A stretch of DNA of 64,000 bases from an uncultured Desulfurococcaceae archaeon (GTDB lineage Archaea; Thermoproteota; Thermoprotei_A; Sulfolobales; NBVN01). The stretch spans positions 747 through 64,746 of the forward strand of contig CAZQFL010000008.1 in NCBI GenBank assembly GCA_964592745.1. The letters run 5' to 3'. Shown here piece by piece: positions 25,724-58,001 of the stretch. A program made the position numbers and the translations under genes. The notes beneath the pieces were generated by a model. It was not told the origin of the DNA. It saw only the letters and a list, made by a program, of their open reading frames with translations, and did no database searches. The number at the start of each line of letters is the position of its first letter. The first letter of the stretch is position 1.

Positions 25724-25728
25724 TTAAA

Positions 25729-27105: not shown

Positions 27106-28391
27106 TAGTTATGGGTGGTCTCTTAGCCCTATATGCGTTTGATGACCTATGGAACCTATCTAACCACGTATACTATGGATTGACAGCTCTAGATCATAGA
27201 GGCTCAGAAAAATATGTGGCTTGCACTATAGGTAATGGTAAAGTTAAATGTTATAAAGGTAGTAAAGAGAGGATTTCCAAAGAAATTACAACACCTCTAG
27301 CAATTGCTGCAACATACAGTAATGAGGATAGGGATATTTACCTAGGTACCTATTCCACCAATGACTTAGAGTTCGTCATGATGGGGGATAGATACTCTAA
27401 AATAATGGATGTAGTGGGCGAAGAGGTTGCCTCAAGATTAAGCTCATCAAATACTCCAATAGCTAATAAAGTATTGTCAGCATTTAAGGAAGTACTTGAT
27501 GAGTTCAAAGATAAAGACATACCATCATTCATAGCTATCACAAGTAAGGGTGAAATTCTAGCTTATAGGAGTAATATAGGTTTAACCTCCCTAACTCTTG
27601 GAGGCTATGGTTTTGATTTAGCATTAATATCCTCCGAGTCAAGAGCTATAGATATACTCGGTGGTGAGGTAAGAAAATGGTTAAGACCTAATGAATTACT
27701 ATACTTATCGAAATATGCTGTCAAGAATGTACGGGTTAATGGTAATGGTGTGGAGCATTTATGCGCATTCGAGCTTCTATACATGGCTAGACATGACTCA
27801 ATAGTTGATGGTGTAAGTGTCTATGAATTCAGGAAGTTTTTAGGAAGTATATTAGCTAAGAATCTAAACGCTAATGTAGATATAGTCGTTGGTGTCCCCG
27901 AGACCGCAATACCTTATGCTGTAGGTCTTGCACAAGCAATTAACAAGCCATTTGAAATAGGGTTTGTGGGTACAGGTAGGCATATGAGGTCAGCTTTAAG
28001 GATAGATCCTCTTCAGAAGCTCATAGCAATACACCTCAAGATGAACCCCGTGGTTCATGTACTTGAAGGTAAGAGGGTAGCTTTAGTTGATGATAGCATG
28101 GTTACTGGGGCTACAATGAAGACTGTTAGTCAAATATTAAGGTATAGGGTTGGTGTTGAGGAATTACATGTAGTTATAGCTAGTCCACCTCTAATAAGGA
28201 GCTGTCCTTATAAGCTCATGCCAATAGATGTTAAGAGTCTCTTAGCAGCTAATTTAGATACTGAAAATGCTGTAAAGTATCTTGAGGTAGACTCACTAAC
28301 TTGGATTAAACCAGAGGTAATAAGTGAGGTTGCTAGATCATTTAACATAAGGCTTTGCGGGAAGTGCTTTGGTGTGGATTTTGTTGGGTGA
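27102..28391 (+). CDS. PurF paralogue lacking the N-terminal catalytic Cys
   Basis: N-terminus is MIVMGGLLALYAF, with Gly where PurF has Cys1, and LDHRGSEKYVAC replaces LQHRGQESAGI. It retains the PRTase loop VALVDDSMVTGATMKT and the cluster-type Cys contexts (CAFELLYMARHDS, SCPYKLMPID, CGKCFG). Confidence 0.75.
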   Translation: MIVMGGLLALYAFDDLWNLSNHVYYGLTALDHRGSEKYVACTIGNGKVKCYKGSKERISKEITTPLAIAATYSNEDRDIYLGTYSTNDLEFVMMGDRYSKIMDVVGEEVASRLSSSNTPIANKVLSAFKEVLDEFKDKDIPSFIAITSKGEILAYRSNIGLTSLTLGGYGFDLALISSESRAIDILGGEVRKWLRPNELLYLSKYAVKNVRVNGNGVEHLCAFELLYMARHDSIVDGVSVYEFRKFLGSILAKNLNANVDIVVGVPETAIPYAVGLAQAINKPFEIGFVGTGRHMRSALRIDPLQKLIAIHLKMNPVVHVLEGKRVALVDDSMVTGATMKTVSQILRYRVGVEELHVVIASPPLIRSCPYKLMPIDVKSLLAANLDTENAVKYLEVDSLTWIKPEVISEVARSFNIRLCGKCFGVDFVG

Positions 28392-28397
28392 GTTGCA

Positions 28398-29894
28398 ATG
28401 AAGGTGTTACTCATAGGATCAGGTGGTAGGGAGCACGCAATTGCGTTAATGATCTCTAGAAGTACTTACAATCCTAAACTCTATGTGGTATCAGATCATA
28501 ATAATCCAGGACTATCCAGGATAGCTAGGAGTACTGGCGGTAAGCTATATAGAGCTAAGACCACGAATCCGCAAGAAGTACTTAAGGTTGCGAAAGAAGT
28601 ATCTCCTGACGTAGTAGTCATAGGTCCTGAGGAACCGCAATTCGCTGGAGTTCCTGACCTACTACGTGATAAGGGCTTCAGTGTATTTGGTGCTAGTTCT
28701 CGATGTGCTGAGATAGAGAGGAGTAAGGTGTTTGCTAGAACTCTCATGTGGAAGTATTCTATACCTGGTAGGTTATACTTCAGAGCTTTCTCATCTCTTG
28801 AGGAGGCACGTAAGTTTGTTGAGTATGCTGGTGACGTAGTTGTGAAGCCTGCAAGACAGGTTGGTGGTAAGGGTGTTAAGGTGCTACGTGAAAATCAAGC
28901 GTACTTATTGGAGGAATATCGTGATGTTAAGAAGGACTTCGTCGTGAAGCTCTTTAAAGAGATGACTAAGTATGTTGATATAGATGCTAAGGTGCTCATA
29001 GAGCAGAGAGTTGAAGGTGTTGAGTACACAGCAATGACGGTAACTGATGGTAGCTACGTACTAGCTCTCCCATTAGTTCAGGATCATCCACATGTTTATG
29101 AGTATGACATAGGTCCTGAAACCGGAGGTATGGGTAGTATATCTGGTCCTGGCTGGGTCTTACCATTCATAGAAGTTGATGAGTTTAAGAGAACTATCGA
29201 AATAATCGATAATGTTGTTAAGGCTTTGCAAACTGAGGTAAAGGATAGATATGTAGGTGCTTTAGCAGGTCAAATGATGCTTACAGCATTGTGGGGTCCT
29301 ACAGTTATTGAGTTTTACAGTAGGTTTGGCGATCCTGAGATATCCAATATGGTTCCGGTAATCACTAGTGACTTCTTAGAGATGATTGAAAGAACCGTTG
29401 ATGGTAGATTAGCAGGGTATAAGCTTGAGATTAGGGATGACGTAGCGGTAGTAGTTAAAGCAGTTGCCCCGGCTGGTTACCCATTAAATAAGAAAGTAGC
29501 AGCTAACCACCCGGTTAGCGTTGATGAAGGTAAGATTAGGGAACTTGGCTGTACACTACTCTACGCTAGTGTTGAGGAGCTTGGAGATGGTACGTTACGT
29601 ACTCACGGATCTAGAGCATTTGAAATCGTATGCTATGATGAAAGTCACGAGAAAGCCTCTAAAAAGGCTGAACTAGCTATATCCTATATCAAATCCTTAG
29701 ATGGTTGGCCATTAATACATAGGAGTGATATAGGATCCATCGAACTCCTTAAGCAGAGACATCACCTGGCTATGCGTATTAGAAGAACCTACAAGGCTAG
29801 AGCACGTAGAGGCCTATTAGGTACTTCAATTGTATGGGTTCCGGGTAAGGGCATATTCTTTGATCCTTTCGCTTCACCTGTAATGACTAGGTGA
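28398..29894 (+). CDS. purD: Phosphoribosylamine-glycine ligase PurD
   Basis: MKVLLIGSGGREHAIA N-terminus, an ATP-grasp core, and SRFGDPE. Confidence 0.9.
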   Translation: MKVLLIGSGGREHAIALMISRSTYNPKLYVVSDHNNPGLSRIARSTGGKLYRAKTTNPQEVLKVAKEVSPDVVVIGPEEPQFAGVPDLLRDKGFSVFGASSRCAEIERSKVFARTLMWKYSIPGRLYFRAFSSLEEARKFVEYAGDVVVKPARQVGGKGVKVLRENQAYLLEEYRDVKKDFVVKLFKEMTKYVDIDAKVLIEQRVEGVEYTAMTVTDGSYVLALPLVQDHPHVYEYDIGPETGGMGSISGPGWVLPFIEVDEFKRTIEIIDNVVKALQTEVKDRYVGALAGQMMLTALWGPTVIEFYSRFGDPEISNMVPVITSDFLEMIERTVDGRLAGYKLEIRDDVAVVVKAVAPAGYPLNKKVAANHPVSVDEGKIRELGCTLLYASVEELGDGTLRTHGSRAFEIVCYDESHEKASKKAELAISYIKSLDGWPLIHRSDIGSIELLKQRHHLAMRIRRTYKARARRGLLGTSIVWVPGKGIFFDPFASPVMTR

Positions 29895-31114
29895 TATATA
29901 TGAAAAAGAGAGAGTATTTGTCAACACCCATGTTTGAAGGATCAATAAAGATCTTACTACTTGGTGGTGGTGAGTTAGGTAAGGAGGTAGCTATAGAGGC
30001 TCAAAGACTAGGCGTTGAGGTTACCGTTGTTGATAGGTATGACTGGGCTCCAGCAATGCATGTTGCTCATAGGAGATATGTGGTTAATTTAGGTGATGCT
30101 GGAGCTTTAAAAGCCATAATTAGGAGGGAGAAGCCTGACGTCATAATACCTGAGATTGAAGCAATAGCTGTTGAAGCTCTTAAGGAGTTAGAGAGTGAGG
30201 GCTACTTAGTCATACCTAACGCTAAAGCTATTGAGATTTCAATGAATAGAATAAAACTTAGAAGATTTGCTGCCGAAGAACTTAGTCTACCGACAACACG
30301 GTATGCCTTTGCTGAAAATCCTGATGAAGCTGTTGATGCATGTGATAAAGTTGGATATCCATGCTTGATAAAGCCTGAAATGAGTAGTTCAGGCCATGGT
30401 CATGTGAGGATTAAGGAGCCATCACCTAATAAGATAAGGGAGGCATATAACTATGCAATAAGGCATGCACGTGGTAGTAGTAAGAGAGTTATTGTTGAGG
30501 AATTCGTAGACTTAGAGGCTGAATTCACGGCGCTCTCATACAGGTATGTTGGTGATAACGGTATTAAAACTGATGTATGTGAACCCGTTGAACACTGGAG
30601 ATATGGTGAGTACCATTACATAGAGTCATGGCAGCCATCCATTAAGCCCGTATCGATAATTGATAAAGTAAAAGAGATAGGTATTAAAGTTGCTGAGGGT
30701 CTTGGAGGTCTAGGCATATTTGGTGTTGAAGTGTTCTTGACTAAGGATGGTAGAGTATTGTTTAGTGAGGTAGCACCTAGACCTCACGATACAGGTATGG
30801 TCACTATGGTTACTCAAGAACTTAGTGAATTTGCCATACATGTTAGAGCTGTCTTGGGGTTACCCATACCTAAACCAAAGGTAATATCACCTGGTGCTAG
30901 CTTAGCAATATATGTTGAGAAGGAAGGAATATGGGCACCTAAATTCTGTGGCGTCTATGATGCTTTAAGGATACCTGGTGTAGATCTTAGAGTCTTCGGA
31001 AAGCCTTTCACTTATGCTGGACGTAGAATGATGGTACTTTTAGCACGTGGTCCATCCGTTAACGAAGCAAGACGTAAGGTATGGGAAGCATCTAAGTATA
31101 TAAAGATGTGCTAA
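29891..31114 (+). CDS. purT: Formate-dependent GAR transformylase PurT
   Basis: [24 protein letters not shown], an ATP-grasp core, and [15 protein letters not shown], typical of PurT. Confidence 0.9.
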
Positions 31115-31115
31115 G

Positions 31116-31550
31116 GTGAGGGCTATGAGTAAGTGTAAAGGTAAAGTGGCAATAATTGTTGGTAGTAAGAGAGACTTAGAGTATGCTGAGAGAGCAGCTA
31201 AAGTGCTTTCAGAGCATGGCGTGGGCTACGATATCAGAGTTTTAAGTGCTCATAGAAACCCAAAGGAACTTGAGGAATACATAGTTAAGAGTGATGCAGA
31301 TATATTTATAGCAATGGCAGGTCTAGCAGCACACTTACCAGGCTTCATAGCCTCTAGGTCTGAGAAGCCCGTGATTGGTGTACCATTAAATGTTGCTTTA
31401 GGAGGTCTTGACTCATTATTAAGTATTGTGCAAATGCCCAAGGGAATTCCAGTAGCTACTGTTGGGATAAATAATCCTGAAAACGCTGCTTACCTAGCTA
31501 TAAGGATCTTGAAGTTATGCATGAAGATGTGCGGTGAGACCCGTGAGTGA
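31116..31550 (+). CDS. purE: N5-CAIR mutase-type PurE (class I signature)
   Basis: [17 protein letters not shown] (class I has SAHR, class II has SAHK), AGLAAHLPG and [16 protein letters not shown]. Confidence 0.9.
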
Positions 31551-32562
31551 GGTTTGGACATATAAAAAAGCAGGTATTGACTTATCTAAGCATAAGCTCA
31601 TGCATAAAAGAGCACTTAACGCTATTAAGGAATTAGCTAAGAAGTTAAGTATTAATGTTAAAGATCTAAGTGGTTATGCATCTTCAATAGTATATAAAGA
31701 TAGAGAGATAGTTCTCCATGTGGATGGTGTTGGAACTAAGACATTGGTTCTTCAAAGGTTGAATAAGCTTGAAGTTATAGGTTGGGACTGTGTAGCTATG
31801 AATGTTAATGATGTTGTATGCGTTGGTGCTAAACCATTAGCTCTGCTCGACTATATAGTACTTCCTGAGAGTAATGAGGAGATATTCAATAGAGTAATTA
31901 ATGGTATTATTGAGGCCTCTAGGGTAAGTAATGTAGCTATAGTAGGTGGTGAAACAGCCATCATGCCGGATCTAGTCGCTGGTGTTGATGCTGCATGCTT
32001 TGTTATGGCCGAAAGACTCTATGATATACCTAAAAGAAATTTGGATGGTCATACGATCATAGGTATAGAGAGTTGGGGCCTTCATGCTAACGGATACACA
32101 CTACTTAGGAAGATCATTGAGAGTAAATTAGGTAGTTATAGTATGAAATTGGAAGGCATAGATATTGGTGAGGAGGTAAGTAAACCAACAGCTATATACT
32201 CTAACTTAATACTTGATGCATTAAGCAGGGGATTAATATCATCAGCAACACATATAACTGGCGGTGCGTTCACGAAGTTAAAGAGGATACTTAACAGCTC
32301 CTTCGACATAATCTTAAAGATGCCTGAGCCAAAGCCTATATTCAAATTAATAGCTAAACTAGGTAACGTACCGCCGACTGAGATGTATAGAGTTTTCAAC
32401 ATGGGTATAGGAATGGTTGTTACAGCACCTAAGGATTGTGTTGAGGAGTTTATGAACTTAACCTCAAAATATGGTTTTAAATCATGGGTTTTAGGTGATA
32501 TACGTTCAGGTAAAGGTAAGATATATATCAAAACATTTACAGGTGATGTAATTGAGTACTAA
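31534..32562 (+). CDS. purM: AIR synthetase PurM
   Basis: [41 protein letters not shown] and [19 protein letters not shown]. Confidence 0.9.
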
Positions 32563-33664
32563 ATCGTTTAAGGAATTAATCAGTGGTTATCCAAGAGATA
32601 TTAAAAACGTATCGATCGCGGCAATAGCTAGCCACTCAGCTTTAGACGTATTTGATGGTGCTAAAGATGAAGGCTTTAGAACCATTGCGATATGCCAGAA
32701 GGGTAGAGAGAAACCTTACTTAAGATTTGATAGGGTTGTTGATATACCAATAATACTTGAAAGATTTGCTGATGTCTTAAGGAGTGATGTCATAGCTAAG
32801 TTGAAGGAGCTTAATGCTATATTCGTACCCAACAGAAGCTTCTCTGTTTATGTTGGTTATGATAATATAGAGAACAGGTTCCCAATACCTATATTTGGTA
32901 ATAGATACTTACTAAGGTATGAAGAAAGGACTGGTGATAAAAATTATTATAGATTACTTGATGAGGCAGGAATTAGAAGACCTAAGACCTTTACTAACCC
33001 TGACGAAATTGATAGACCGGTCATGGTCAAGATGCCTCATGCTAGGAAGAGAGTTGAGAGGGGATTCTTTATTGCTGTAGATCGTGATGACTTTTGGAGG
33101 AAGTTTAGAGACTTAGTTAATAAGGGTATAGTTCGTGAGGATGACTTACCTAAAGCTTCGATAGAGGAGTTAGTTGTGGGCGCTCACTTCAATGTTAACT
33201 ACTTCTACAGTGTTGCTAGGAGGAGGTTAGAATTATTAAGTATAGATAGAAGAATCCAGACAAATCTTGATGGCTTCTTGAGAATGCCTGCTGATGTGCA
33301 GATAGAGGTTAGTAAGGTTTTAGATATTGAGATGGTTGAGATAGGTCATGAAGCAGTAACGATTAGGGAGAGGATGTTAGGTAAGCTATTCGATATTGGG
33401 GAGTCGTTCATCAATGCTGCAAAGAAGATTGAACCACCTGGTGTGATAGGCCCCTTCACTTTACAACTCATGGTGACACCAGATCTTGATGTCGTAGTAT
33501 TCGATGTAGCTTTAAGAATTGGTGGTGGTACGAATATATACATGGGTATAGGTAGTCAATACAGTAAGCTATACTTTGGGAGACCAATTAGCATGGGTAG
33601 GAGAATAGCAATGGAAATCAGAGAATGTATTGAAAAAGAATGTCTTAGTGACATACTCACATAA
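32552..33664 (+). CDS. purP: PurP, copy 2 (last gene of the pur operon)
   Basis: [25 protein letters not shown]-terminus and an ATP-grasp core. Clear paralogue of ORF 20644-21741. Confidence 0.85.
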
Positions 33665-39099: not shown

Positions 39100-40245
39100 G
39101 TGAAGATCATGGTAGAATCTAATGAAGCAATAAGACTTTATGAATTAAAAATTAGGGTGCGTGAGGAATTAGGCTCCATACTCAGCGAAAATTCTAAAAA
39201 GAAAGCTTCAAGAGATCCCCATTCAAGGAGAAAACCTAGACCATGCGGTATAACAATACATCCCGGACATGGATGCGTATTCGGATGCATATATTGTTAC
39301 GTACCTGACATGGGATTCCCTTCAAGCGAGGTTAAACCATACCCGTTGAGTAGTTTAGAGCTTGTTTATGCACTATCTCTTAACCCTTATGTAGTACCTG
39401 AAAGAACTTTAGCAGCTTATGGATCTGTAACTGAACCCCTACTACCTAAAATAGTAAATAAAACATTGAGCTACATAAGGGATGTATGGAAATGGTTAAG
39501 ACTACCATCACAGATTAGTACAAAGGAAATCATACGTGAAGATATCGCTAAAAAACTTAAGGATTATGAACCAAGAATAAGCATCTTAATAACAATAATT
39601 AGTATAAATAAAAGTAAAATCTTAGAACCTAGAGCTCCTGACCCTCTTCTAAGACTTAGAGGAGCTAAAGTAGCCTCTAGCCTCGGTCTAAGAGTTGACT
39701 TATTTCTAAGACCTATAATACCCGGCATTACAGACAGGGAATACATGGATATCTTGAAACTCGCAGTAAGTCATGGTATAAAGGGTGTCGTTACTGGTTC
39801 TTTAAGAGTTACTCAAGGCATAATTGATCGATTAAAGAAATCAGGTATAGGTATTAATACAATAATCAATAGGCTGACAAGAAGTCCTAGAAGTAAGAGT
39901 GATCAGGTGCCTATATCAACACTAGATATTAAATTAAGAGTTGATGAATATGCAAGAAGGCTCGGTATGGATGTTATGCAATCGGCATGCGCAGCAAACA
40001 TATTATCACATGGTATGAGCTGCAGATTATGTGACTTTGGTCCCTGTGGTATGAAGTTTTACAAGCCTAGTGAGCGTGAATTAAGGGAATTCCTTGAATA
40101 CTTAGGAGTTAAGGTAGCAGAATTAGTAAATAGTGGTAGTGAGTTTAGTATCCTCATTAAGAAATCTAGGAGGTTCAGCACTACTTGGTTAAAGTATTAT
40201 CTATCGGAAGTATATAAGATGAGGTTTAAAATCATTGAGGAATAG
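39100..40245 (+). CDS. Radical SAM protein (SplB/COG1533-like), unknown substrate
   Basis: The CxxxCxxC motif lies in GHGCVFGCIYCYVP. There is an extra C-terminal Cys cluster CAANILSHGMSCRLCDFGPCG. Confidence 0.75.
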   Translation: MKIMVESNEAIRLYELKIRVREELGSILSENSKKKASRDPHSRRKPRPCGITIHPGHGCVFGCIYCYVPDMGFPSSEVKPYPLSSLELVYALSLNPYVVPERTLAAYGSVTEPLLPKIVNKTLSYIRDVWKWLRLPSQISTKEIIREDIAKKLKDYEPRISILITIISINKSKILEPRAPDPLLRLRGAKVASSLGLRVDLFLRPIIPGITDREYMDILKLAVSHGIKGVVTGSLRVTQGIIDRLKKSGIGINTIINRLTRSPRSKSDQVPISTLDIKLRVDEYARRLGMDVMQSACAANILSHGMSCRLCDFGPCGMKFYKPSERELREFLEYLGVKVAELVNSGSEFSILIKKSRRFSTTWLKYYLSEVYKMRFKIIEE

Positions 40246-41529: not shown

Positions 41530-42546
41530 TTAATACACGTTCAGTATTCTTCTTGGAGTTAACGGTAATGCCTCAACAATTCTATACTTACAAGGTAATT
41601 TCTTAGCAATATCAACGCTGATTACAACCACGTTATTTACTTTAAATGCTATACCATACTCTATTAACTTACTAGTTAACTCTTTAGGACACTCAGTTAA
41701 TTCAGCCCACTTAACCAAACCATTACTAAGTACTTCATAAGGTTTTAACGTGGTTTTAGCTCTTAAACTTAACCTTAACCTGTATTGATATTTGTCCTTA
41801 AACCTTGCTGGACAATAATGTAGGTTGATATGTAGGCCTTCATTAATTACCCATTCAATAACCTTTAGTGCTGTATCTTCAGAGCCTATAGCTGCGACTC
41901 CATCAGGTTTAGGTCTTAATCCTCTCATTAATAATTTATCATAATTACTCTCACTAAATTCCAATTCATTCATGTTTATGAACTTGACGCCCAGCTTAAG
42001 ACCATTTAGGATTATTTTCTTAAATTCATTAAGGCCATTAGGAATTACGGGATTTTCTATACCAACATCTATGGGATACTCTATGGCTCTTTTCAATGCC
42101 TTCCAGGAATGATTACCAGTTATATGCAATCTTATTTCATCTAAACCAGCATCAACTAATTTACTTAATTTTTCATCTGTGAGTATCAAGCCAGTAGTAT
42201 ATAGGTGGATATGGAATCTCCTTCCGAAGAACTCCTTTAGCATTTTAATGTAGTTCAGTAATCTATCGAATTTAAGTAATGGATCACCTCCTGTTATGCC
42301 GACACCTTTTGATTTGGACAAGAGTACTTCAAGTAGTATGTCTGTATTTTCTTTAACTTTTACATCATTAATTAAGGTTACATCCTTACCCCTTCTCTCA
42401 GGTGATATGGGGCAATAGTAGCAATGCTCTAAACAGAGCCCAGTAATGAAGAGTACGGATTTAAAGCCCTCCTTACATAGTTTACATCCTTGAGCTAATT
42501 CGCCAATCCAACATCCATATTCTTTGCAGTTACCTTCTAGTTTCAT
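41530..42546 (-). CDS. Radical SAM protein (PflA-related, COG2108-like)
   Basis: CxxxCxxC in TGLCLEHCYYCPIS, then GITGGDPLL, plus an N-terminal Cys-rich segment CKEYGCWIGELAQGCKLC. Confidence 0.8.
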   Translation of the reverse strand: MKLEGNCKEYGCWIGELAQGCKLCKEGFKSVLFITGLCLEHCYYCPISPERRGKDVTLINDVKVKENTDILLEVLLSKSKGVGITGGDPLLKFDRLLNYIKMLKEFFGRRFHIHLYTTGLILTDEKLSKLVDAGLDEIRLHITGNHSWKALKRAIEYPIDVGIENPVIPNGLNEFKKIILNGLKLGVKFINMNELEFSESNYDKLLMRGLRPKPDGVAAIGSEDTALKVIEWVINEGLHINLHYCPARFKDKYQYRLRLSLRAKTTLKPYEVLSNGLVKWAELTECPKELTSKLIEYGIAFKVNNVVVISVDIAKKLPCKYRIVEALPLTPRRILNVY

Positions 42547-42563: not shown

Positions 42564-45023
42564 TTAGGACTCTTTAATATACTTTACATATATTCCATTA
42601 CCTAAATCCTCATCCCATTCAGAAGGCTTACCTAACTTTACATTAATTACTCTATGTAGTACTCTAATATCTTCAGCTATATCTCGAGCTTTCTCAGGTA
42701 TATACAGTATAGCTCTCAGCTCATCAGAGAATCGAATATTTAACCTCTTCTTTAGTTTCCATATAGCTGAATTCACCTTAACTAGGAAATCTATTAACTC
42801 CTCTTTACCTTCACTAACATCTAGCTCCTCTTCTCTTATTTTCTCTCTATGGACGCTTACGCCTGCATTCATGTGACGCCATATGTAGTCTGTCACGAAT
42901 GGCATTATTGGCGATAATAGCTTAATTATCAATTTAAAGACTTTATAGAGCGTATGTATGGCACCGTTGATTTCCTCATTACTAAATTCTCCTTTACCGT
43001 AAATCCTAGGCTTTACAGTTTCTAAGTAGTTTGAAGCGAAGATATTCCATGCTAAGTCGTAAAGCTTATGTATGGGCTCAAATACGTCAAGTTCTTTATA
43101 GGACTCAATGACCTCCCTAGCAATTTTTGATGCATACTTAAGCATTGCCTTATCTAACTCTCTAAGTCTATACTCACCACTCTTTGGCTCCCTGAATGAT
43201 GTGATGAATCTAGCTATGTTTATAAGCTTAGTACAGAACATTAACCCTGTCTTGACTAAGTTTAATGACCATCTATAGTCACTACCAAGCTTACCTGAAG
43301 CTGCAGCCCAGTATCTGAATGCATCTGCACCATACTTTTCAAGGTAAGGTTCAGGATATATGACGTTACCTAGCGACTTATGCATAGCTCTACCCTTCTC
43401 ATCCAAGCCCATGCCCGTAATCCTAACCCACTTAAATGGTGGCTTACCCGTTAGTAGCCATACTCTAAGTACGCTGTAATATAGCCACGTTCTTATGATG
43501 TCATAGCCTTGAGGTCTTAAAGCATGCTCAAGAGCCTTTAATGCTGCTTCTCTATCATCGAGCCATTTAGTCACGTAAAGAACACTTATTGATGAGTCAA
43601 ACCATGTATCAAAAGTCCTAGTCTCACCAACTATTTCACTCTTAGGAGCACCGCATTTAGGACATGAATTAACTGGTGGTGGATCTTTCCAAGGCCTTAC
43701 ATACTTGCCAGGCTCTGGAAGTATGACATAACCACACTTCCTACATCTCCAAATAGGTACTTCAGTACCATAGTACCTAGTCCTCGATATCGGCCAGTCC
43801 ATAGCTAAAGACTCAACCCAAACCTCAAGCTTCTTCTTATGTTCAAGTGGTCTAAATATCATTTTATTTGCTACCTTCAGGACTTCATCCTTAAAATCTA
43901 ATTGCTTAAGAAAGTACTCCTTAGTGTGTATAAATTCTATAGGTGTCTTACACCTCCAACAAACAGGTATCTCACCCTCGTAATCCTCAACCTTAACGAG
44001 ATAGCCTTCATCCTTAAGCTTCTCAACTATAACTTCCCTAGCTTTATCAACCTTTAACCCTTTAAGGAAACCAGCCTCCTCATTCATGGTTCCATCAGGG
44101 TTTATCAGGATCTTAGGTTTTAGATTCATTTCCCTAAAGAACCATATATCCTTAGTATCTCCATAAGAACACATCATTACTAATCCAGTACCAAATTCAG
44201 GTTTAGCGAATTCATGCTCCATGATTGGTACTTCATCACCGTATAGAGGAATTATTGCGTGTTTACCCTTCAGGTATTTGTACCTATTATCTCTAGGGTT
44301 ATAAATTACCGCACCACAGGCTTTAAGTAATTCAGGTCTTGTGGTAGCTATTACTATGTCTTCTCCTGTCTCTTTAACCTTGAACCTTATGTAGTAGAGC
44401 TTCCTCTTAGTCTTAATGAACTCAATCTCAGCTTCAGCTAAGGTAGTACCGCATCTAGGACACCACATGACAGGCTTATATGACTCATATATTAGACCCT
44501 TCTTCCATAACTCAATGAATGTTGCTTGAGTTATTCTTCTATACTTCGGTGAATCCGTGCCATCCCTCCAATACTCAAAAGAGCATCCCAATCTTCTCCA
44601 TACATTTACTAAGTTCCTCTCATACTCATCAAGCACTTCCTTAACCATTTTAAGGAATTTCTCCCTACCCTCAGGTGTCTTAGCTATTTCATGTGCTGAA
44701 ATACCGTACTCCTTCTCAACGGTAACCTCAGCAGGTAAGCCATTTCTATCAGCATAAAACGGTACTAATACCTTATAGCCTAGAAGTCTAAATGCTCTAG
44801 CAATCATATCTATTTGAGCGTAGTGAGCGGCTTGAGCAACACCCCATCTACCTGACGGATATGGGGGTGGTGTATCTATCACAACGTACTTTTCATCCCT
44901 CCTAAAGTCCACGATCTCCTTATAGAGTTGCTCCTTATCCCAAATTTTTAGTAACTCAAGTTCTATCGATGGATCCCAACGCTTAATTGGTATGATGCTT
45001 CTACCCTCCACAAGAGCACCCAA
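42564..45023 (-). CDS. valS: Valyl-tRNA-synthetase-like class Ia protein with non-canonical HIGH and KMSKS motifs
   Basis: 819 aa with IDTPPPYPSG..., WCPRCGTTLAEAEIEF, CP1 editing motifs ATTRPELL and FGTGLVMMCSYGD, and YGADAFRYW. At the HIGH position the sequence reads GVAQ (SGRWGVAQAAHY), and the KMSKS position reads AMHKS (GRAMHKSLGNV). Confidence 0.8.
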   Translation of the reverse strand: MGALVEGRSIIPIKRWDPSIELELLKIWDKEQLYKEIVDFRRDEKYVVIDTPPPYPSGRWGVAQAAHYAQIDMIARAFRLLGYKVLVPFYADRNGLPAEVTVEKEYGISAHEIAKTPEGREKFLKMVKEVLDEYERNLVNVWRRLGCSFEYWRDGTDSPKYRRITQATFIELWKKGLIYESYKPVMWCPRCGTTLAEAEIEFIKTKRKLYYIRFKVKETGEDIVIATTRPELLKACGAVIYNPRDNRYKYLKGKHAIIPLYGDEVPIMEHEFAKPEFGTGLVMMCSYGDTKDIWFFREMNLKPKILINPDGTMNEEAGFLKGLKVDKAREVIVEKLKDEGYLVKVEDYEGEIPVCWRCKTPIEFIHTKEYFLKQLDFKDEVLKVANKMIFRPLEHKKKLEVWVESLAMDWPISRTRYYGTEVPIWRCRKCGYVILPEPGKYVRPWKDPPPVNSCPKCGAPKSEIVGETRTFDTWFDSSISVLYVTKWLDDREAALKALEHALRPQGYDIIRTWLYYSVLRVWLLTGKPPFKWVRITGMGLDEKGRAMHKSLGNVIYPEPYLEKYGADAFRYWAAASGKLGSDYRWSLNLVKTGLMFCTKLINIARFITSFREPKSGEYRLRELDKAMLKYASKIAREVIESYKELDVFEPIHKLYDLAWNIFASNYLETVKPRIYGKGEFSNEEINGAIHTLYKVFKLIIKLLSPIMPFVTDYIWRHMNAGVSVHREKIREEELDVSEGKEELIDFLVKVNSAIWKLKKRLNIRFSDELRAILYIPEKARDIAEDIRVLHRVINVKLGKPSEWDEDLGNGIYVKYIKES

Positions 45024-45069: not shown

Positions 45070-46047
45070 CTAAGAATCGTATTGCAGTTTTAATAATTCC
45101 TTAGGAGGTCTCATGGCTATGTATGCTGCACCTATGAGTACGGCATCATCACCTAACGGTGTTAATGTTAATTTAGGCATTCTGTTAGTTACGTACCTCT
45201 TAACAACTCTAAATATTAGCTTCACAAAATCGGGATTCTTGAGCGCTATACTACCTCCAACACTCACTACTTCAGGATCATAAACATTAATTACTGAAGC
45301 CATACCTGCAGCATTCACCTTAATTAAGTCCTTTACTATACTACGTGCAAATACATCACCAGCTCTCCAAAGGCTAAATAGGTCTTCAGGTCTCAACAAA
45401 CCTGCTAATGCCTTTTCATAAGCAATGGTGTCTCTACCCTTCCACCTCCTAGCCTTAAGTAGTGCATAGCGAGGTATCGCTGAACCTGAGGCTATACTCT
45501 CCCAATGGCCTAACCCTCCACAACCGCATCTTATCTTACATTTAAAATCAATAACTATGTGCCCTACCTCATGAGCATTCCCGTCCTTACCTAAGAGTAA
45601 GTGATCATTAACTATAACACCAGCACCAATACCTGTACTTAACGTTATGTAAACAACGTTTGAATAACCCCTACCAACTCCAACTAGGTATTCACCCCAT
45701 ACAGCAGCAACACAATCATTAACTACGTAGGTACTTACATTAAACATCTTTGTTAATGGCTCCTTAAGCTTGAACCTCCTTAAGGGATTATTAGGAGTAT
45801 TTACTACTTCACCCTTCCTAATGTCTAAAGGCCCTATAGTACCTATACCTATACTGACTAATTTCACTTTACCTACCTCACTTACGAGCTTACTACCAAT
45901 ACGGTATATTTCCTTAGCTACGGTGTAATCATCACCGATAGTGGGAGTTCTTACGACTTCCTTGTATAGGATATTGCCGCTCAAGTCAAATAAGGCTATG
46001 CGTAGATTTGTGGCACCTACATCTACTGCTAGTACTGTTTCCAGTAT
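45070..46047 (-). CDS. ROK-family sugar kinase (glucokinase-like); start codon non-canonical/uncertain
   Basis: ROK signature CGCGGLGHWESIASG and DNDCVAAVWGE-like NDCVAAVWGE. The ATP phosphate-1 loop LAVDVGATNLRIALFD is encoded at 45985-46032, upstream of the TTG used by the ORF track. The frame is open only to 46050 and has no ATG/GTG/TTG in that stretch. Confidence 0.75.
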   Translation of the reverse strand: MLETVLAVDVGATNLRIALFDLSGNILYKEVVRTPTIGDDYTVAKEIYRIGSKLVSEVGKVKLVSIGIGTIGPLDIRKGEVVNTPNNPLRRFKLKEPLTKMFNVSTYVVNDCVAAVWGEYLVGVGRGYSNVVYITLSTGIGAGVIVNDHLLLGKDGNAHEVGHIVIDFKCKIRCGCGGLGHWESIASGSAIPRYALLKARRWKGRDTIAYEKALAGLLRPEDLFSLWRAGDVFARSIVKDLIKVNAAGMASVINVYDPEVVSVGGSIALKNPDFVKLIFRVVKRYVTNRMPKLTLTPLGDDAVLIGAAYIAMRPPKELLKLQYDS

Positions 46048-46592
46048 TACTCACCTCTAGGATGCTCCTTTAAGTACTTACATACCTCACTAGCTAAGCT
46101 CTTTGGGTCATTAATTACCTTAATCGTACTTGTCCTTCTCTCATCAATGTATGGAGAAAACACGGTAAGTTTGTCTGTAGGTAGTCCCGTCATACCTAGT
46201 ATGTATATAGGTACACCTTCCGCATAAGCAGTTATGACTTCCTGTATAGTACCTGAAGCACCACCTAACGCTACAAGTACTTCGGATGTCCTAACGAGAA
46301 ACACACTTCTAACCCTAAACGAGGTACCAGTCCTAACTACTATGGCGTCTGAAGGAAACCTAACATCCTCCATCTCCAAAGGCGGTAATATTAAAACCTT
46401 AAATCCTAACTTTAATGCTTCATCAACAATAATCCTCATTAAACCCCAATAACCACCTATTACTAATACTATAGATGATGGTTCAAAACATAGAGCCAGC
46501 GTCTCAATAAACTCTACTGCAGCTTCCCTTAGAGAGTCGGAGGGGGGTCCAGAATATGCAGCAATACCTACATACCTGAGCATGTATACCAC
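46047..46592 (-). CDS. LOG/TIGR00725-family Rossmann-fold protein (lysine-decarboxylase-like)
   Basis: GGYWGLMR (GGxxGxM) and ALGGASGTIQE (GGxGTxxE) motifs, 181 aa. Confidence 0.7.
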   Translation of the reverse strand: MVYMLRYVGIAAYSGPPSDSLREAAVEFIETLALCFEPSSIVLVIGGYWGLMRIIVDEALKLGFKVLILPPLEMEDVRFPSDAIVVRTGTSFRVRSVFLVRTSEVLVALGGASGTIQEVITAYAEGVPIYILGMTGLPTDKLTVFSPYIDERRTSTIKVINDPKSLASEVCKYLKEHPRGE

Positions 46593-47696: not shown

Positions 47697-49145
47697 ATGG
47701 TTCTAAATGAAGACCTAATATTTAAGGTATTAGACGTAGCCTTAGACATGGGAGCAAGTTATGCAGAGGTAAGGTATCAACGTGATGAATTCTCAGAAGT
47801 TGCTTTAAGGAATGGGAATGTCATAGGCTTTGGTAAGGACGTTAGTGAGGGTATAGGTATTAGAGTGATTGTTGATGGAGCCTTAGGATTTGCATCAACA
47901 AATATGTTAACTATTGATGAAGCAAGAAGAGCAGCTGAGAGAGCAGTCAATAGAGCAAAAGCATTAGCAAAGTTAATGAAGGAGCCGATAGCTTTCAGTG
48001 AAGAAAGAGTTGGTCGAGCAACATATAATTTAGTTCCTAAGAAGGATCTTAGTGAATTATCCATAGAGGATAGGATAGCCTTAGGTGCGGAGATTCATAA
48101 ATCAATAGTTAGTACGGTAAGAGAGGTTAAGGTTGCCGTTACAGCGTTCTTTATTAGAGATCATATTCAGGAGAAGTTTATAGTTAATAGTGATGGTGCG
48201 TATATAAGATCGTACATACCAAGACTCTCAATAATAGTGAACTTCGTACTGGCACACCCTCAGAAAGGAACTCTCCAAAGGTATATTAGCTATGGGGCTT
48301 CAGGAGGTTCCGAATTAATTAAGGAATGGAAGCCCGAGGATGAGATAGTTAATGAAGTTAAGAATTTAGAGAAAGTACTTGTGAAGGGGAAGGAACCCCC
48401 GAAAGATGAGATAGATGTGGTGATTGGACCTGAAGTTGTTGGTCTAATAGTTCATGAATCAGCAGGTCATCCCATGGAGGCTGACAGGATACTTGGTAGG
48501 GAGGCAGCTCAAGCTGGTGAATCATTCGTTAAGCCTGAAATGATAGGTAAGTATAGAATAGGGACAGAATTAGTGACCATAATTGAAGACCCAACAATAC
48601 CCGGTAGCTATGGCTATTACCTATATGATGAAGAAGGAGTCCCAGCTAGACCTAGGTACTTATATTATAAGGGAATAATTAATGAGCCATTACATAATAG
48701 ACATACAGGTAAGATATTTGGTGTAGGGAGTAATGGGGCTGCTAGAGCTATGGACTATAAATCTGAACCTATCATAAGGATGAGCAATACATACTTCAAA
48801 CCTGGTAACATGGAGTTTGATGAATTAATTGAGGATATAAGACTTGGTGTTTACATAAAGTCATTTATGGAGTGGAACATAGATGATATACGTTGGAATC
48901 AGAGATATGTTGGTCTTGAAGCTTACATTATAAGGGATGGTGAGGTTAGAGAGGATGAGCCAGTTAAGAATCCAGTACTAGAGATAACAACTCAGGGATT
49001 CTATTCGAGAGTTACTGGAGCTGATAAGAATCTAAGGTTTTACCCAGCAACATGTGGTAAAGGTGAGCCAGCTCAAGGCGTCCCTGTATGGATTGGCGGT
49101 CCTAACGTACGTGTTTCAAGAATTAAGTTAGGGGTGAGAATGTGA
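47697..49145 (+). CDS. tldD: TldD metalloprotease
   Basis: 482 aa with the HESAGHPMEAD zinc motif and a TldD-type C-terminus (CGKGEPAQGVPV). Confidence 0.9.
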   Translation: MVLNEDLIFKVLDVALDMGASYAEVRYQRDEFSEVALRNGNVIGFGKDVSEGIGIRVIVDGALGFASTNMLTIDEARRAAERAVNRAKALAKLMKEPIAFSEERVGRATYNLVPKKDLSELSIEDRIALGAEIHKSIVSTVREVKVAVTAFFIRDHIQEKFIVNSDGAYIRSYIPRLSIIVNFVLAHPQKGTLQRYISYGASGGSELIKEWKPEDEIVNEVKNLEKVLVKGKEPPKDEIDVVIGPEVVGLIVHESAGHPMEADRILGREAAQAGESFVKPEMIGKYRIGTELVTIIEDPTIPGSYGYYLYDEEGVPARPRYLYYKGIINEPLHNRHTGKIFGVGSNGAARAMDYKSEPIIRMSNTYFKPGNMEFDELIEDIRLGVYIKSFMEWNIDDIRWNQRYVGLEAYIIRDGEVREDEPVKNPVLEITTQGFYSRVTGADKNLRFYPATCGKGEPAQGVPVWIGGPNVRVSRIKLGVRM

Positions 49146-50473
49146 TAGAACTCATACATAACGCTAAGAAAGCATCGGATAAGCTTAAGATAAAGTTTGA
49201 TGATGTAGCCATAAAAATGGTGCTTAAGGACTCAGTAATGGTTAAGATATGGAATAATCAGATAAGTGTTACTCAATCGTGGAGGACTATAGAGTCTCGA
49301 ATATATCTGGCTAAAGATAAGAGGATACTTGAGTTAAGCTTGAGTCTTGAGAGGCCTGAAGATATAGTTAAGGTATGTGATGAAATGAGTAAGTACGTTG
49401 GTGTAATGAAGGAGTCAGAAATTTATGCACCATTACCTGAGCCAACGGCGTATAAGCCCCTTAAAGACTTAACTGATGTTAAAATTCGTGACTATATGGA
49501 TAATCCCTTACCATTAGTTGAGGGTCTAATAGGTAGTGCATTAGATAATGGTGCTCAAAGAGTTGCTGGAACATTAGAACTCTCAATTGAAAGAAAGGCG
49601 CTTGTTACAAGTAAAGGGTTTGAAGGTGAAGAGGAAGGTAGTGAGGTTATGTGTTATCTAAGGGCATTTAAAGGAGATGTTAGTGGTCATTGGGCATACG
49701 GTAGTAGAAGGGTTAATAAGGAAAGCATAGAGTATGTTGGAAGGAGGGCAGCGGAGATAGCTACTTTAAGTAAGGGTAAAGTAAGTGTGGAACCAGGTAA
49801 GTATGATGTCATATTATCACCTCTTGTTGTAGGTAACTTATTAAATGATGTAGCTATGATGGCTTCAGGTCTTTATATAATGATGGGCTTCTCCATGTTT
49901 ATGAAGTTTAAAATAGGTGATGTCATAGCGTCAGGCATGGTATCACTATACGACGTACCCAGAAACATAGAGCTAGCTAGATCTACATCATTTGATGATG
50001 AGGGTATAGAGACATACGATAAACCAATAATAGAAGGAGGTAAGTTTACGAATATATTACATAATGTTAAAACTAGTAGTAAACTTGGTGGTAAAACTAC
50101 AGGTAATGCTGGCTGGATTACTCCCCTACCTTGGAATATAGAGTTAAAGCCTGGAGACTATAGTGAGGAGGAATTAATTAGGGAGGTAAGGAGGGGGCTA
50201 CTAATGACTAATAATTGGTACACTAGACTCCAGAACTACGTTGAAGGTCAGTTCTCAACAGTTAGCAAGGATGCAGTATTCTATATAGAGAATGGAGAAA
50301 TTAAAGGATATACTGAGAGGATAAGAATAGCCGACACGTTCGTAAACCTTTTGAGGAATGTGAGGGCTATAGGTAAGACTCAATACTTAATAAGATGGTG
50401 GGAGGTAAGGATTCCATCTAAAGTTCCCTACTTACTAGCAACAAATGTAAATATTACTAAGCCTTATGCTTAA
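49142..50473 (+). CDS. pmbA: PmbA/TldE (partner of TldD)
   Basis: 443 aa in the TldD/PmbA family with no HExxxH. The GTG start overlaps the tldD stop by 4 nt and is preceded by GGGGTGA. Confidence 0.85.
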   Translation: MIELIHNAKKASDKLKIKFDDVAIKMVLKDSVMVKIWNNQISVTQSWRTIESRIYLAKDKRILELSLSLERPEDIVKVCDEMSKYVGVMKESEIYAPLPEPTAYKPLKDLTDVKIRDYMDNPLPLVEGLIGSALDNGAQRVAGTLELSIERKALVTSKGFEGEEEGSEVMCYLRAFKGDVSGHWAYGSRRVNKESIEYVGRRAAEIATLSKGKVSVEPGKYDVILSPLVVGNLLNDVAMMASGLYIMMGFSMFMKFKIGDVIASGMVSLYDVPRNIELARSTSFDDEGIETYDKPIIEGGKFTNILHNVKTSSKLGGKTTGNAGWITPLPWNIELKPGDYSEEELIREVRRGLLMTNNWYTRLQNYVEGQFSTVSKDAVFYIENGEIKGYTERIRIADTFVNLLRNVRAIGKTQYLIRWWEVRIPSKVPYLLATNVNITKPYA

Positions 50474-50484: not shown

Positions 50485-51561
50485 CTAAATACTATCCTCG
50501 ATTTTTCCATACTCACCTGAATATTCATCACCTACTTCCTCTTCATACCATCCCTTAGGACAGCCCTTACCATACCTTATGATTGATTTCTTGAGTTTGG
50601 TTAATAATACCACTCTTGATGGTATTGAGTATGATGCAACTCTGTAACCCATGGACTCTGATAATCTCTTAGCGAATTCTAAGACCTCCTTGAATGACGG
50701 CATATTATCTCTACTAAGCCTCTCTATTGAACCCCCAACGTGCATGTACGCTTTGACTTCTATATACGTAGGTTCAGCTATGCTTAATATTCTACTAAAG
50801 CTGCTAACAGCTTTCTCATCCATGTTAAAACCTCTTAGAACTGTTACCCTTATTACCGTGGGGCACGTAAATGATGGTAAAATCTCCAGCGTCTCTAATG
50901 TTCTATCCCAACCCCTACTCGTTAATGGTCTATTGAAGTAATCATACATCTCCTTATTCCATGCCTCAATCGATACATATAATTGTGTAGGTTCTTCATC
51001 TAATGATGCAAGAACTTCAGGTCTAATACCTCTAGTTACTAAGAACGTAGTTAAGCCCCTCTTATGGAATGCCTTAATTAACTCCCCTAAACGTGGGTAA
51101 AGTGTTGCTTCACCAGTTAATGATATAGCTACATGCTTAGGATCCATAGCCTCCTTCCATAACTTCTCAGACGTCCTATGCCTGTAACCACTAACAGTTC
51201 TCCTATGCTCATGTATAGCCATTTCAGCTATGAAGTCTGGATCGTCAACATATGGTAGTCTCGTTAAGTCACTATATGTGAACCCGTAATCTTGGGGTCT
51301 AACTCTCCAACAATGTAAGCATGCGTTCCAGCACCATAGAGTTGATGGTGTGAATTGTATGCATCTATGTGATTCAATACCGTAAAACTTACACTTATAG
51401 CAGAACCTACCCTCAACTAATGCATTATGAACCCATAAACACTTCTTTATGGCTGAATGAGTACCTATTAAGTGATATTTTTGATTCTTAAGCCTATTAA
51501 TTATTAACGTTAATGGGTCTCTTAATATCTCACTCCTAACTCCATTCTTTAACACTGTCAA
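50485..51561 (-). CDS. taw1: tRNA 4-demethylwyosine synthase Taw1/TYW1 (radical SAM)
   Basis: CYKCKFYGIESHRCIQFTP, then WCWNACLHCWR (cluster motif), then ISLTGEATLYPRL. Typical Taw1 architecture. Confidence 0.85.
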   Translation of the reverse strand: MTVLKNGVRSEILRDPLTLIINRLKNQKYHLIGTHSAIKKCLWVHNALVEGRFCYKCKFYGIESHRCIQFTPSTLWCWNACLHCWRVRPQDYGFTYSDLTRLPYVDDPDFIAEMAIHEHRRTVSGYRHRTSEKLWKEAMDPKHVAISLTGEATLYPRLGELIKAFHKRGLTTFLVTRGIRPEVLASLDEEPTQLYVSIEAWNKEMYDYFNRPLTSRGWDRTLETLEILPSFTCPTVIRVTVLRGFNMDEKAVSSFSRILSIAEPTYIEVKAYMHVGGSIERLSRDNMPSFKEVLEFAKRLSESMGYRVASYSIPSRVVLLTKLKKSIIRYGKGCPKGWYEEEVGDEYSGEYGKIEDSI

Positions 51562-56831: not shown

Positions 56832-58001
56832 TTAGTAATAGTTGCCTAAGAGCCATTCATTACCTATGAATATGCGCTTCAGACCTGCTTCCTTAGCCTT
56901 TCTTAGAGCTCCTAATGCGTGATTTAGACTCGTTGGTGGTAAATCTCTTAAGAGGTGGTCAGGATGAAACGCTAGTAGTACGTATGGTATTTCATTACTT
57001 AGTGAGGAGATGTATTCAGCTATCTTACCTACCTCATATTCATCAACGTAGCCTGGGACTAGTAAAGTGCTGACAACTAGTAGTGGCACTTCAGGTCTTT
57101 CTTTACCTAGATCAGCCACTATCTTAGCGTTAGTTTTTAATCTCTCTACAGCTTTAACTCCGTCAATACCCGTCAATGCTTGATATATTGGTGGTGACCA
57201 AGCTTTCCAATCAATCTTCACAATACCCCCGCTAATCAGGCTTAGTTTAGCCATCTCACGCATGATTGCAGGGTTAACTAATCCGTTAGTCTCCCAGCAT
57301 ATCCTCTTGATGAGTCCCTTCCTTGAAGCATACTCAACGATCCTTCGTGAAGCCTTAATAGCGTAGAGAATGTGGGGACCTGGATCGCCACCGAAGAAAC
57401 ATACACAGGTTATTCTATCATTCCCTAACGCTTCCTCAACTAAGTCATCAACGCTTCTTACGTACTTAACCCTTAATCTCTCACTAGCTATCATTTCTTT
57501 ATGCTCCCAATTCTGACAGAATAGACAGTCTAGGTTACAACCTGCAAAGAATACTGCAAGGTTGAACATGCCGTACTCAGGCCCCTTAACAAGTGTGTAC
57601 TTAGGGTATCCAGCTCCTGTTGCTGCTGGACATACAGGTGTTGCAACACAGTTTGTTGGTAAAGGATCTAAATACCAATAAACTACTGCTTTATCCCAAC
57701 CAATAATGGGCTTTAACCTCCCCTCACTATTAGACCATAAACCGCAGAAGCCCTTACCACCCGGTGGTATTAGGCATTCATTAACGCATAACGAACACCT
57801 TAAACACTTCTCACCAGCTCGCGGTGGTTCAGGCGGTAAACCTAATGATTCTCTATAATTTACATGAGCCTTTAACGCTATCTTAAGTGACTCACTAGGA
57901 TTTCGCCTTAAACATGAAGCACATACACCTATAACATCACTAATGACCCTAGACTTACTACCACATAGTAAGCAGCTACCCATACTCCCTAGCTTCAGCA
58001 T
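56832..58001 (-). CDS. Radical SAM enzyme, pyruvate-formate-lyase-activase-like, with N-terminal Cys-rich domains
   Basis: FFAGCNLDCLFCQNWEH (CxxxCxxC). An N-terminal zinc-ribbon-like CLLCGS...CASC and a CLRCSLCVNEC ferredoxin-like motif. Confidence 0.8.
   Translation of the reverse strand: MLKLGSMGSCLLCGSKSRVISDVIGVCASCLRRNPSESLKIALKAHVNYRESLGLPPEPPRAGEKCLRCSLCVNECLIPPGGKGFCGLWSNSEGRLKPIIGWDKAVVYWYLDPLPTNCVATPVCPAATGAGYPKYTLVKGPEYGMFNLAVFFAGCNLDCLFCQNWEHKEMIASERLRVKYVRSVDDLVEEALGNDRITCVCFFGGDPGPHILYAIKASRRIVEYASRKGLIKRICWETNGLVNPAIMREMAKLSLISGGIVKIDWKAWSPPIYQALTGIDGVKAVERLKTNAKIVADLGKERPEVPLLVVSTLLVPGYVDEYEVGKIAEYISSLSNEIPYVLLAFHPDHLLRDLPPTSLNHALGALRKAKEAGLKRIFIGNEWLLGNYY

Follow-up and report, generated by a model that had tools for sequence, protein, structure and literature searches.

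The question raised by the locus described here is whether, and how, a class Ia aminoacyl-tRNA synthetase can function when both of its class-I signatures deviate from the consensus. The gene concerned, valS, encodes a valyl-tRNA synthetase (ValRS) and is located in a 64-kb stretch of contig CAZQFL010000008.1 of an uncultured Desulfurococcaceae archaeon (this whole stretch of analyzed DNA is referred to below as the window). The segment of the protein corresponding to the HIGH signature reads GVAQ, and the KMSKS loop reads AMHKS. The original prediction, made from the sequence of the window, left two readings side by side: a pseudo-synthetase paralogue or a ValRS with a non-canonical active site. 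Our analysis favors the latter, and we consider it likely that the product is a working, probably housekeeping, ValRS of this hot-environment archaeon, with a rebuilt ATP/transition-state site.

The maximal valS open reading frame (ORF) extends from a TTG codon at position 45023 to position 42564 on the minus strand and encodes 819 amino acids (aa), the version used for residue numbering throughout. The homologues (MEGRS...), as well as the JGI and ENA gene calls, begin at the GTG codon at 45011, four codons after the TTG, which yields a protein of 815 aa and is probably the true start. An A/T-rich stretch, ataaagcttgtattaatatt, is present approximately 15-35 nt upstream of the start region (45011-45023, minus strand), and may serve as a TATA-like element for a valS transcript with almost no leader.

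All of the peptides by which the 819-aa protein had been recognized as a class Ia enzyme of the ValRS type (IDTPPPYPSG, WCPRCGTTLAEAEIEF, ATTRPELL, GTGLVMMCSYGD, SGRWGVAQAAHYAQIDMIARA and GRAMHKSLGNV) were found in the ORF. Over residues 12-798 the protein scored 878.1 bits with NF009687, the NCBIfam equivalog model of archaeal ValRS (also PRK13208), which exceeds the cutoff of 738 by 140 bits; with the older, general model TIGR00422 the score was just below the cutoff (588.7 vs 612.1). Pfam models identified a class I catalytic domain, a LeuRS-type editing domain and an anticodon-binding domain. An AlphaFold2 (AF2) model built on 46 homologues had a mean predicted local distance difference test score (pLDDT) of 91.8, and its best match in the PDB (Foldseek) was chain 1gax_A, the ValRS of Thermus thermophilus with tRNA (E = 9e-56, TM 0.85). 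The protein is thus a full-length archaeal-type ValRS, organized as follows:

42564..45023, minus strand: valS, archaeal-type ValRS (NF009687, alignment to 1gax and fold; start from homologues and gene calls)
44451..44462, minus strand: CxxC knuckle 1, C188/C191 (all eight Cys of the four knuckles are invariant)
43974..44423, minus strand: CP1 editing domain, approximately residues 201-350 (Pfam PF13603; alignment to the editing domains 1wka/1wk9)
44331-44348, minus strand: Thr-rich ATTRPE motif of CP1, residues 226-231
44148-44192, minus strand: GTG...D289..D292 of CP1, residues 278-292
43950-43961, minus strand: CxxC knuckle 2, C355/C358
43734-43745, minus strand: CxxC knuckle 3, C427/C430
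43653-43664, minus strand: CxxC knuckle 4, C454/C457
42708..43154, minus strand: anticodon-binding helical domain, residues 624-772 (Pfam PF08264, E = 5.9e-30)

The editing residues T227, R229, P230, E231, G278, G280, D289 and D292 are invariant in the 46-sequence alignment, and the earlier view that the editing domain is intact is borne out.

The register of the two signatures was established in three ways. The HMMER alignment to 1gax is gapless over both motifs and pairs HMGH with G61-V62-A63-Q64 and KMSKS with A546-M547-H548-K549-S550 (the 21-residue segment of the HIGH region is paired with PPPYPSGRWGVAQAAHYAQID, and the loop segment GQKMSKSKGNVIDP with GRAMHKSLGNVIYP). The same register was obtained in a MAFFT alignment of 197 full-length ValRSs, and in the AF2 model the signature helix begins at residue 62, with G61 as its N-cap. 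The gapless alignment originally made by eye, in which both histidines of the H-x-G-H signature are gone, was therefore correct, and the same alignments confirmed the loop as AMHKS, in which the first Lys is replaced by Ala and the Ser by His, with the second Lys retained. The elements of the altered active site are:

44832..44843, minus strand: G61-V62-A63-Q64, occupying the place of the class-I H-x-G-H (HIGH) signature in the structure, at the N-terminal end of helix 62-80
44823..44825, minus strand: His67 (signature position +7), invariant in the GVAQ clade and in the HVGG sister clade
44739..44750, minus strand: D92-R93-N94-G95 (DRNG), invariant; Asp92 aligns with the Asp of Thermus GTDHAG
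43374..43388, minus strand: A546-M547-H548-K549-S550, equivalent of the KMSKS loop; the final Ser is also kept
43356..43358, minus strand: Tyr556 (GNVI-Y-P), six residues past the loop motif; the sister clade and Thermus have Asp

The GVAQ codons are ggt gtt gct caa (44843-44832); a change from His to Gly requires two base changes, so that the motif cannot come from a single-base error. The pLDDT falls to 84 at the AMHKS loop, which would fit a mobile loop, and residues M547, H548, K549 and S550 are invariant in all 114 sequences of the GVAQ and HVGG types.

The surroundings of the altered motifs have been preserved. Residues P52-54, D92, D472, T473, W474, G506, I509 and W513 are invariant in the 46-sequence alignment, D508 is conserved in at least 90% of the sequences, and the stretch D472-S478 is invariant or nearly so across the GVAQ and sister clades. 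These positions align with the PPP, GTDHAG, DTWF and GYDI..W elements of Thermus, and we take P52-54, D92, D472-W474, G506, D508, I509 and W513, from the ValRS structure, to form the valine/adenosine pocket, in which the Asp of GTDHAG, aligned to Asp92, is presumably the ligand of the substrate's amino group. Arg93 stands where canonical ValRSs mostly have His, Asp or Asn (DHAG, DxHG, DDNG), and DRNG mostly accompanies a residue other than His at signature position 4 (two exceptions were found). His67 is a candidate part of the remodelled site, as judged from its conservation.

How far these changes extend was examined in the best 120 of 7,897 database homologues. The first 53 (P0001-P0053; 60-94% identity to the ValRS of the window) carry the labels of metagenome-assembled genomes (MAGs) of Desulfurococcales, Desulfurococcaceae, 'Sulfolobales', Acidilobales and Zestosphaera, and wherever the N-terminus is present they read W-G-V-(A/G)-Q-A-(A/G)-H-Y. 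The remaining 67 (P0054-P0120; 55-60% identity), which include the cultured species Desulfurococcus amylolyticus and D. mucosus and a Thermogladius MAG, have lost the fourth His and read H-V-G-G, H-V-G-A, H-I-G-A or H-V-G-Q. The loop A/E-M-H-K-S replaces KMSKS in nearly all of the 120 sequences (one has PMHKS). The variant loop and the loss of the fourth His are thus, on the evidence of these alignments, family traits of a Desulfurococcus-like group of ValRSs and are not peculiar to the gene of the window; in this respect its unusualness had been overstated. Of the two earlier readings, that of a ValRS with a non-canonical active site is favored by the NF009687 score, the low rate of amino acid replacement in the catalytic half and the conservation of the domains (see below).

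Loss of the first His has a much narrower distribution. In the MAFFT alignment it is missing from all 47 GV(A/G)Q sequences, which are independent clusters at 90% identity from many metagenomes, and from none of the 142 other aligned ValRSs (the motif region is absent from six gene calls truncated at the 5'-end and misaligned in one sequence; all other non-GVAQ sequences have His). Residues G61, V62 and Q64 are invariant in the 47 sequences, whose mean pairwise identity is only 65%; position 63 is Ala in 43 and Gly in 4. The relatives therefore share the substitutions, as the original prediction had asked to be checked: those of the GVAQ type throughout the clade, those of the AMHKS type more widely. 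What would be new in the clade is H61G with G63A and G64Q only. Five JGI gene calls of 742 aa that belong to the GVAQ clade (P0035, P0036 and P0038-P0040) start at an internal Met (MVARALRLLG...) and lose some 70 N-terminal residues, including the signature; here the true GTG or TTG start has probably been missed in the gene call.

More distant relatives, collected in a search of 1.8 billion cluster representatives, show further combinations of the two motifs:

Fervidicoccaceae ValRS: signature HIAA, loop AMHKS
Nitrososphaeria ValRS: signature HVGA, loop AMSKS
Hodarchaeales ValRS: signature HLGG, loop KMSKS
ValRS of Thermoplasmatota MAGs (P0126, P0134): signature HIGA, loop KMSKS
Methanomethylicota ValRS: signature HMGN, loop MMHKS
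other ValRS relatives: signature HxGH, loop KMSKS

A search of the accessible literature library found no publication on AMHKS/EMHKS, HVGG/HIGA or degenerate archaeal ValRS signatures, which is absence of evidence only.

Only nine alignment positions cleanly separate the GVAQ clade from its sister clade: 61 (H>G), 63 (G>A), 64 (G>Q), 110 (P>A), 419 (A>G), 556 (D>Y), 585 (F>W), 657 (F>L) and 665 (H>N). Three of these (61, 63 and 64) belong to the signature itself, and a fourth (556) follows the loop motif at a distance of six residues. Conservation of Lys59, just ahead of the signature, is confined to the sister clade; in the GVAQ clade the position varies. Tyr556 is present in 41 of the 47 GVAQ sequences and in all five members of a separate HVGQ group (P0070, P0096 and P0111-P0113).

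In neighbor-joining trees (100 bootstraps, motif columns removed) the GVAQ sequences form a clade together with P0061, with 92-95% bootstrap support, nested among HVGG/AMHKS sequences. P0061, an HVGA/AMHKS sequence from a cluster labelled Candidatus Methanomethylicia (another archaeal class), pairs with the GVAQ sequence P0053 (of the kind termed type B below) in 83%; strict monophyly of the GVAQ state was rejected (12-17% bootstrap). The position of P0061 implies, if the tree is taken as it stands, (i) a reversion of H61G, (ii) two independent origins of H61G, or (iii) horizontal transfer. The HVGQ group is sister to HVGG-type sequences in 83 of 100 bootstraps and was grouped with the GVAQ clade in none, and it was therefore rejected as the immediate precursor of GVAQ. 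The pair Q64 and Y556 thus seems to have arisen twice, which suggests that Gln64 and Tyr556 are functionally coupled.

The pattern of constraint also argues for function. In comparison with a 92%-identical orthologue in a related MAG locus (L001), the ratio of nonsynonymous to synonymous substitution rates (dN/dS) is 0.055 for the whole of valS and 0.024 for the Rossmann half with the altered signature (residues 40-200); values for the neighboring genes in the same comparison range from 0.047 to 0.115. Per-domain entropy is nearly equal in the GVAQ clade and its His-bearing sister clade, with both Rossmann halves the most conserved parts in each, and the GVAQ clade is on average only 1-12% farther from eight outgroups than the sister clade is. 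Neither relaxed constraint nor acceleration of the catalytic core, as expected of a pseudo-synthetase, was observed, and this pattern of conservation would not be expected of a relaxed pseudo-enzyme. From the purifying selection on the catalytic core we infer that the enzyme activates valine and charges tRNA-Val.

The genomic context is also stable within the clade. The immediate neighbors of valS are:

46047-46592, minus strand: SLOG/TIGR00725-family protein, upstream
45070-45984, minus strand: ROK-family sugar kinase, upstream
41530..42546, minus strand: radical-SAM protein, downstream, 18 bp past the ValRS stop codon; kept in all nine related loci

The order SLOG-ROK-ValRS-radical-SAM was found in seven of the nine related MAG loci; the remaining two are truncated at valS or close to it. 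In eight of the nine, ValRS is the most conserved gene of the neighborhood (in L001 an NTP-transferase is marginally higher). The locus of D. amylolyticus (L011) and the window have no neighbors in common, and positional orthology is thus demonstrable within the GVAQ clade only.

These observations can be combined into a putative scheme, in which the order of the substitutions is taken from their distribution on the neighbor-joining tree. In the first step the fourth signature His would have been lost (H-x-G-G/A/Q/N) and an Arg gained beside the Asp that binds the amino group (DRNG), a state seen in Thermoplasmatota-, Hodarchaeales-, Nitrososphaeria- and Fervidicoccaceae-labelled MAGs and in Desulfurococcus. 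In the second, KMSKS would have changed to A/E-M-H-K-S, with loss of the first Lys, gain of His548 in the mobile loop and retention of the catalytic second Lys. Gln64 and Tyr556 would then have appeared, and the first His would have been lost last; in the clade of the window, this third step would comprise H61G, G63A and G64Q together with D556Y. In the resulting enzyme, valine and ATP would bind in an unchanged pocket (PPP52-54, D92, W474, D508, I509 and W513), Lys549 would still stabilize the transition state, and the role of the lost imidazoles would be taken by some combination of Gln64, His548 (on the closing loop), Arg93, Tyr556 and His67, with editing and tRNA binding presumably unchanged. 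The presence of AMHKS with HVGG in D. amylolyticus and D. mucosus places the earlier changes in enzymes annotated as ValRS of cultured species. We tentatively suggest, as an idea that we hold with less than even confidence, that this is the first class Ia member to work without any His in the four-residue signature, its catalytic groups having been moved to His548, Gln64, Arg93 and Tyr556, or activation having become dependent on tRNA. Amino acid activation that depends on tRNA occurs in GluRS, which bears HVGG. By analogy with IleRS2, the motif change of which is linked to mupirocin resistance, the selecting agent may have been an unknown inhibitor that mimics the adenylate, present in hydrothermal communities.

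Among known systems the protein is closest to the archaeal-type ValRSs, for example that of D. amylolyticus (P0076/P0078), with which it shares approximately 57% identity over the full length, the domain order, DRNG, His67, the A/EMHKS loop, the four CxxC knuckles, the editing motifs and the anticodon-binding domain. The Desulfurococcus enzyme, however, keeps the first His (W-H-V-G-G against W-G-V-A-Q); the two also differ by D556Y, F585W, P110A, A419G, F657L and H665N, and share no local synteny. The Thermus ValRS (1GAX) has the same fold (TM 0.85), gapless signatures, PPP, D92, DTWF, GYDI..W and the second Lys, but differs in HMGH, DHAG, KMSKS, GNVIDP, bacterial-type editing residues (K-V-T-P-A-H-D) and a C-terminal coiled coil (29% identity).

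The nearest precedent for a remodelled signature is provided by IleRS2 with G/AxHH, the members of which are fully active bacterial housekeeping enzymes (Brkic et al. 2023, PMC10485003; PDB 8c8w), and the discovery of which was judged 'highly surprising' by its authors. The first and third signature positions were called the most conserved of the class I motif (PMC10485003). IleRS2 tolerates the swap at the first position because the role of the lost residue passes to a His at position 3; reversion to HxGH is found in nature, and the remodelling is linked to mupirocin hyper-resistance (PMC10485003). Like IleRS2, for which experiments showed that the change leaves activity almost unimpaired, the GVAQ ValRS is a class Ia protein with Gly or Ala at position 1 (G61 in all 47 sequences) throughout a clade, and the reversion has a counterpart in the HVGA sequence P0061 nested within the GVAQ group. 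IleRS2 has His at positions 3 and 4, a canonical KMSKS and mupirocin as a driver, whereas the GVAQ ValRS has Ala and Gln, an altered KMSKS and no known driver. Bacterial TrpRS, with TIGN in place of HIGH, is a natural active class I enzyme without signature histidines (PMC10201369), and shares with the GVAQ ValRS an amide at position 4 (Asn in TrpRS, Gln in ValRS). It differs in being a class Ic dimer with no editing domain and in keeping the Gly at position 3 and a canonical KMSKS; moreover, TIGN is family-wide in TrpRS, while GVAQ is a late change in a family that otherwise keeps the first His.

Several points weigh against a working enzyme. Mutation of the first His is reported to lower the activation rate approximately 1000-fold in several enzymes of class I (cited in PMC10485003), and a GxHH swap abolishes the activity of IleRS1 (PMC10485003). 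Unlike IleRS2, the GVAQ ValRS has no His at signature position 3 that could stand in. The trees are of the neighbor-joining type only, and two MAGs each list two GVAQ-type ValRS genes.

The last of these points leads to the alternative that survives best, although we regard it as improbable: that the same genome has two functional ValRS genes, a window-like type A and a type B resembling P0400, specialized for different conditions or for resistance to an unknown inhibitor that mimics the adenylate, in the manner of bacterial IleRS1/IleRS2. MAG ex4484_42 lists OYT48597.1 (type A, 97% identical to the protein of the window) as well as the fragments OYT47204.1 and OYT47043.1 (type B), which together are 100% identical to P0400, a GVAQ/AMHKS ValRS with 61% identity to the protein of the window. 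A second MAG lists HDN75816.1 (window-type, 79%) and HDN75972.1 (99.5% identical to P0400). The relevant features are:

L013 2-1693 and L014 9409-10221 (JGI 3300005265, MAG ex4484_42): type B ValRS, split over two contig ends
L014 7849-9279, minus strand: cysteinyl-tRNA synthetase (CysRS) adjoining the type B ValRS, with canonical HVGH and KMSKS

The type B contigs resemble the window in tetranucleotide composition (r = 0.94-0.96, a value ambiguous with regard to a shared genome), and the motif remodelling of IleRS2, which confers antibiotic hyper-resistance, offers a parallel; to our knowledge, however, no natural inhibitor of ValRS has been described. The type B sequences are nearly uniform (99.5-100% identity) in MAGs that differ by 21% in their type A genes, and are located on short contigs or at contig ends, so that mis-binning of one co-occurring population appears a more economical explanation of their presence beside type A than paralogy. 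Among the best matches there are 2-3 type B clusters and approximately 45 of type A, so that type B is not a paralogue found throughout the clade. Types A and B are both GVAQ/AMHKS without the first His, and neither would therefore serve as a canonical back-up. The CysRS on the contig of this related GVAQ lineage is canonical, and the remodelling is thus specific to ValRS and not lineage-wide.

A second alternative, which we consider quite unlikely, is that the synthetic site is dead and that the protein acts in trans-editing, tRNA binding or regulation, while a canonical ValRS is encoded at another site of the genome. This reading is consistent with the deviation of both class-I signatures, the strongly deleterious effect of first-His loss in other class I enzymes (as reported in PMC10485003), the intact editing residues and the score just below the cutoff of TIGR00422. 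It is at odds with the fact that the motif-bearing Rossmann half is the most constrained region, that the pocket residues and Lys549 are invariant, that the altered residues are fixed and not drifting, with no marked acceleration of rate, and that NF009687 is passed by a wide margin; in addition, the ValRS of cultured Desulfurococcus has most of the deviation as well (AMHKS, absence of the fourth His). The original prediction's suggestion of such a paralogue is accordingly disfavored. No second class Ia enzyme was detected in the 64-kb window by tblastn with the ValRS protein, and a scan of GTDB genomes with query-specific patterns returned orthologues only. Among the best 120 matches, no second close ValRS was found on any of the long contigs (0.34-1.41 Mb) bearing a GVAQ gene, a weak test that excludes close paralogues only, and for most organisms of the clade the window-like ValRS is, among these matches, the sole sequence of ValRS type that can be assigned to them. 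The second LeuRS of Sulfolobus, reportedly a duplicated inactive paralogue, is likewise a full-length class Ia-like protein of a thermophilic archaeon in which aminoacylation is suspected to be absent; the GVAQ ValRS differs from it in that neither relaxed constraint nor acceleration was seen and no canonical partner was found in the window or among the best matches.

That the true protein has the signature histidines, and that GVAQ is an artefact of sequencing, assembly or alignment, is extremely improbable: the first alignment was made by eye and the source is a metagenome assembly, but HMMER, MAFFT and the structure model agree on the register, the motif is held in 47 independent clusters and at nine GTDB MAG loci, His to Gly takes two substitutions, and an identical 815-aa protein is encoded on a 279-kb JGI contig and on the 141,682-bp ENA contig ERZ27248007.

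The rest of the window is ordinary chromosomal DNA, with genes for purine biosynthesis, MoeA, aldehyde:ferredoxin oxidoreductase and TldD/PmbA; no tRNA gene was found in the 64 kb. The purine-biosynthesis cluster (20644-33664) also includes PurD, a PurT/PurK-like ATP-grasp gene and PurM. Its two paralogues with DUF1246/DUF1297 domains may be PurP-type enzymes. Two divergently oriented MoeA paralogues occupy 13881-17240, the second of which (15270-17240) is fused to a periplasmic-binding-protein-like domain (PF12727). Three TldD/PmbA-family metallopeptidase genes are present, a single one at the left end (446-1843) and a tandem pair near the ValRS gene (47697-50473), and there are four other radical-SAM genes (39100-40245, 41530-42546, 56832-58001 and the neighborhood of the gene at 50485-51561); no function could be assigned to the two nearest to the ValRS gene. 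Individual features are:

18761-20611: aldehyde:ferredoxin oxidoreductase, following the MoeA pair
20644-21741, minus strand: DUF1246/DUF1297-domain paralogue 1
23534-25723: PurL-like gene
25717-27105: PurF-like gene with a glutamine amidotransferase domain, in tandem with the next
27102-28391: PurF-like gene matching the phosphoribosyltransferase domain only
32552-33664, plus strand: DUF1246/DUF1297-domain paralogue 2
50485-51561, minus strand: radical-SAM protein that includes a wyosine-formation domain, encoded within a few kb of valS; probably the tRNA-Phe modification enzyme Taw1/TYW1

If the GVAQ ValRS is the working enzyme that we propose, the clade goes beyond IleRS2, in that it has no His at positions 1, 3 and 4, has Ala in place of Gly, and has an altered KMSKS as well. 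The archaeal ValRSs form a graded natural series, from HxGH/KMSKS through HxGG/KMSKS, HVGG/AMHKS and HVGQ with Y556 to GVAQ with Y556, which makes the relocation of class I transition-state contacts testable by swapping a few residues. Annotation and quality filters that require HIGH and KMSKS would wrongly mark genes of the GVAQ type as pseudo-enzymes. Judged by its conservation, the GVAQ ValRS appears to bear every evolutionary sign of essentiality, and this clade may be able to do without the HIGH histidines, which are regarded as necessary for catalysis.

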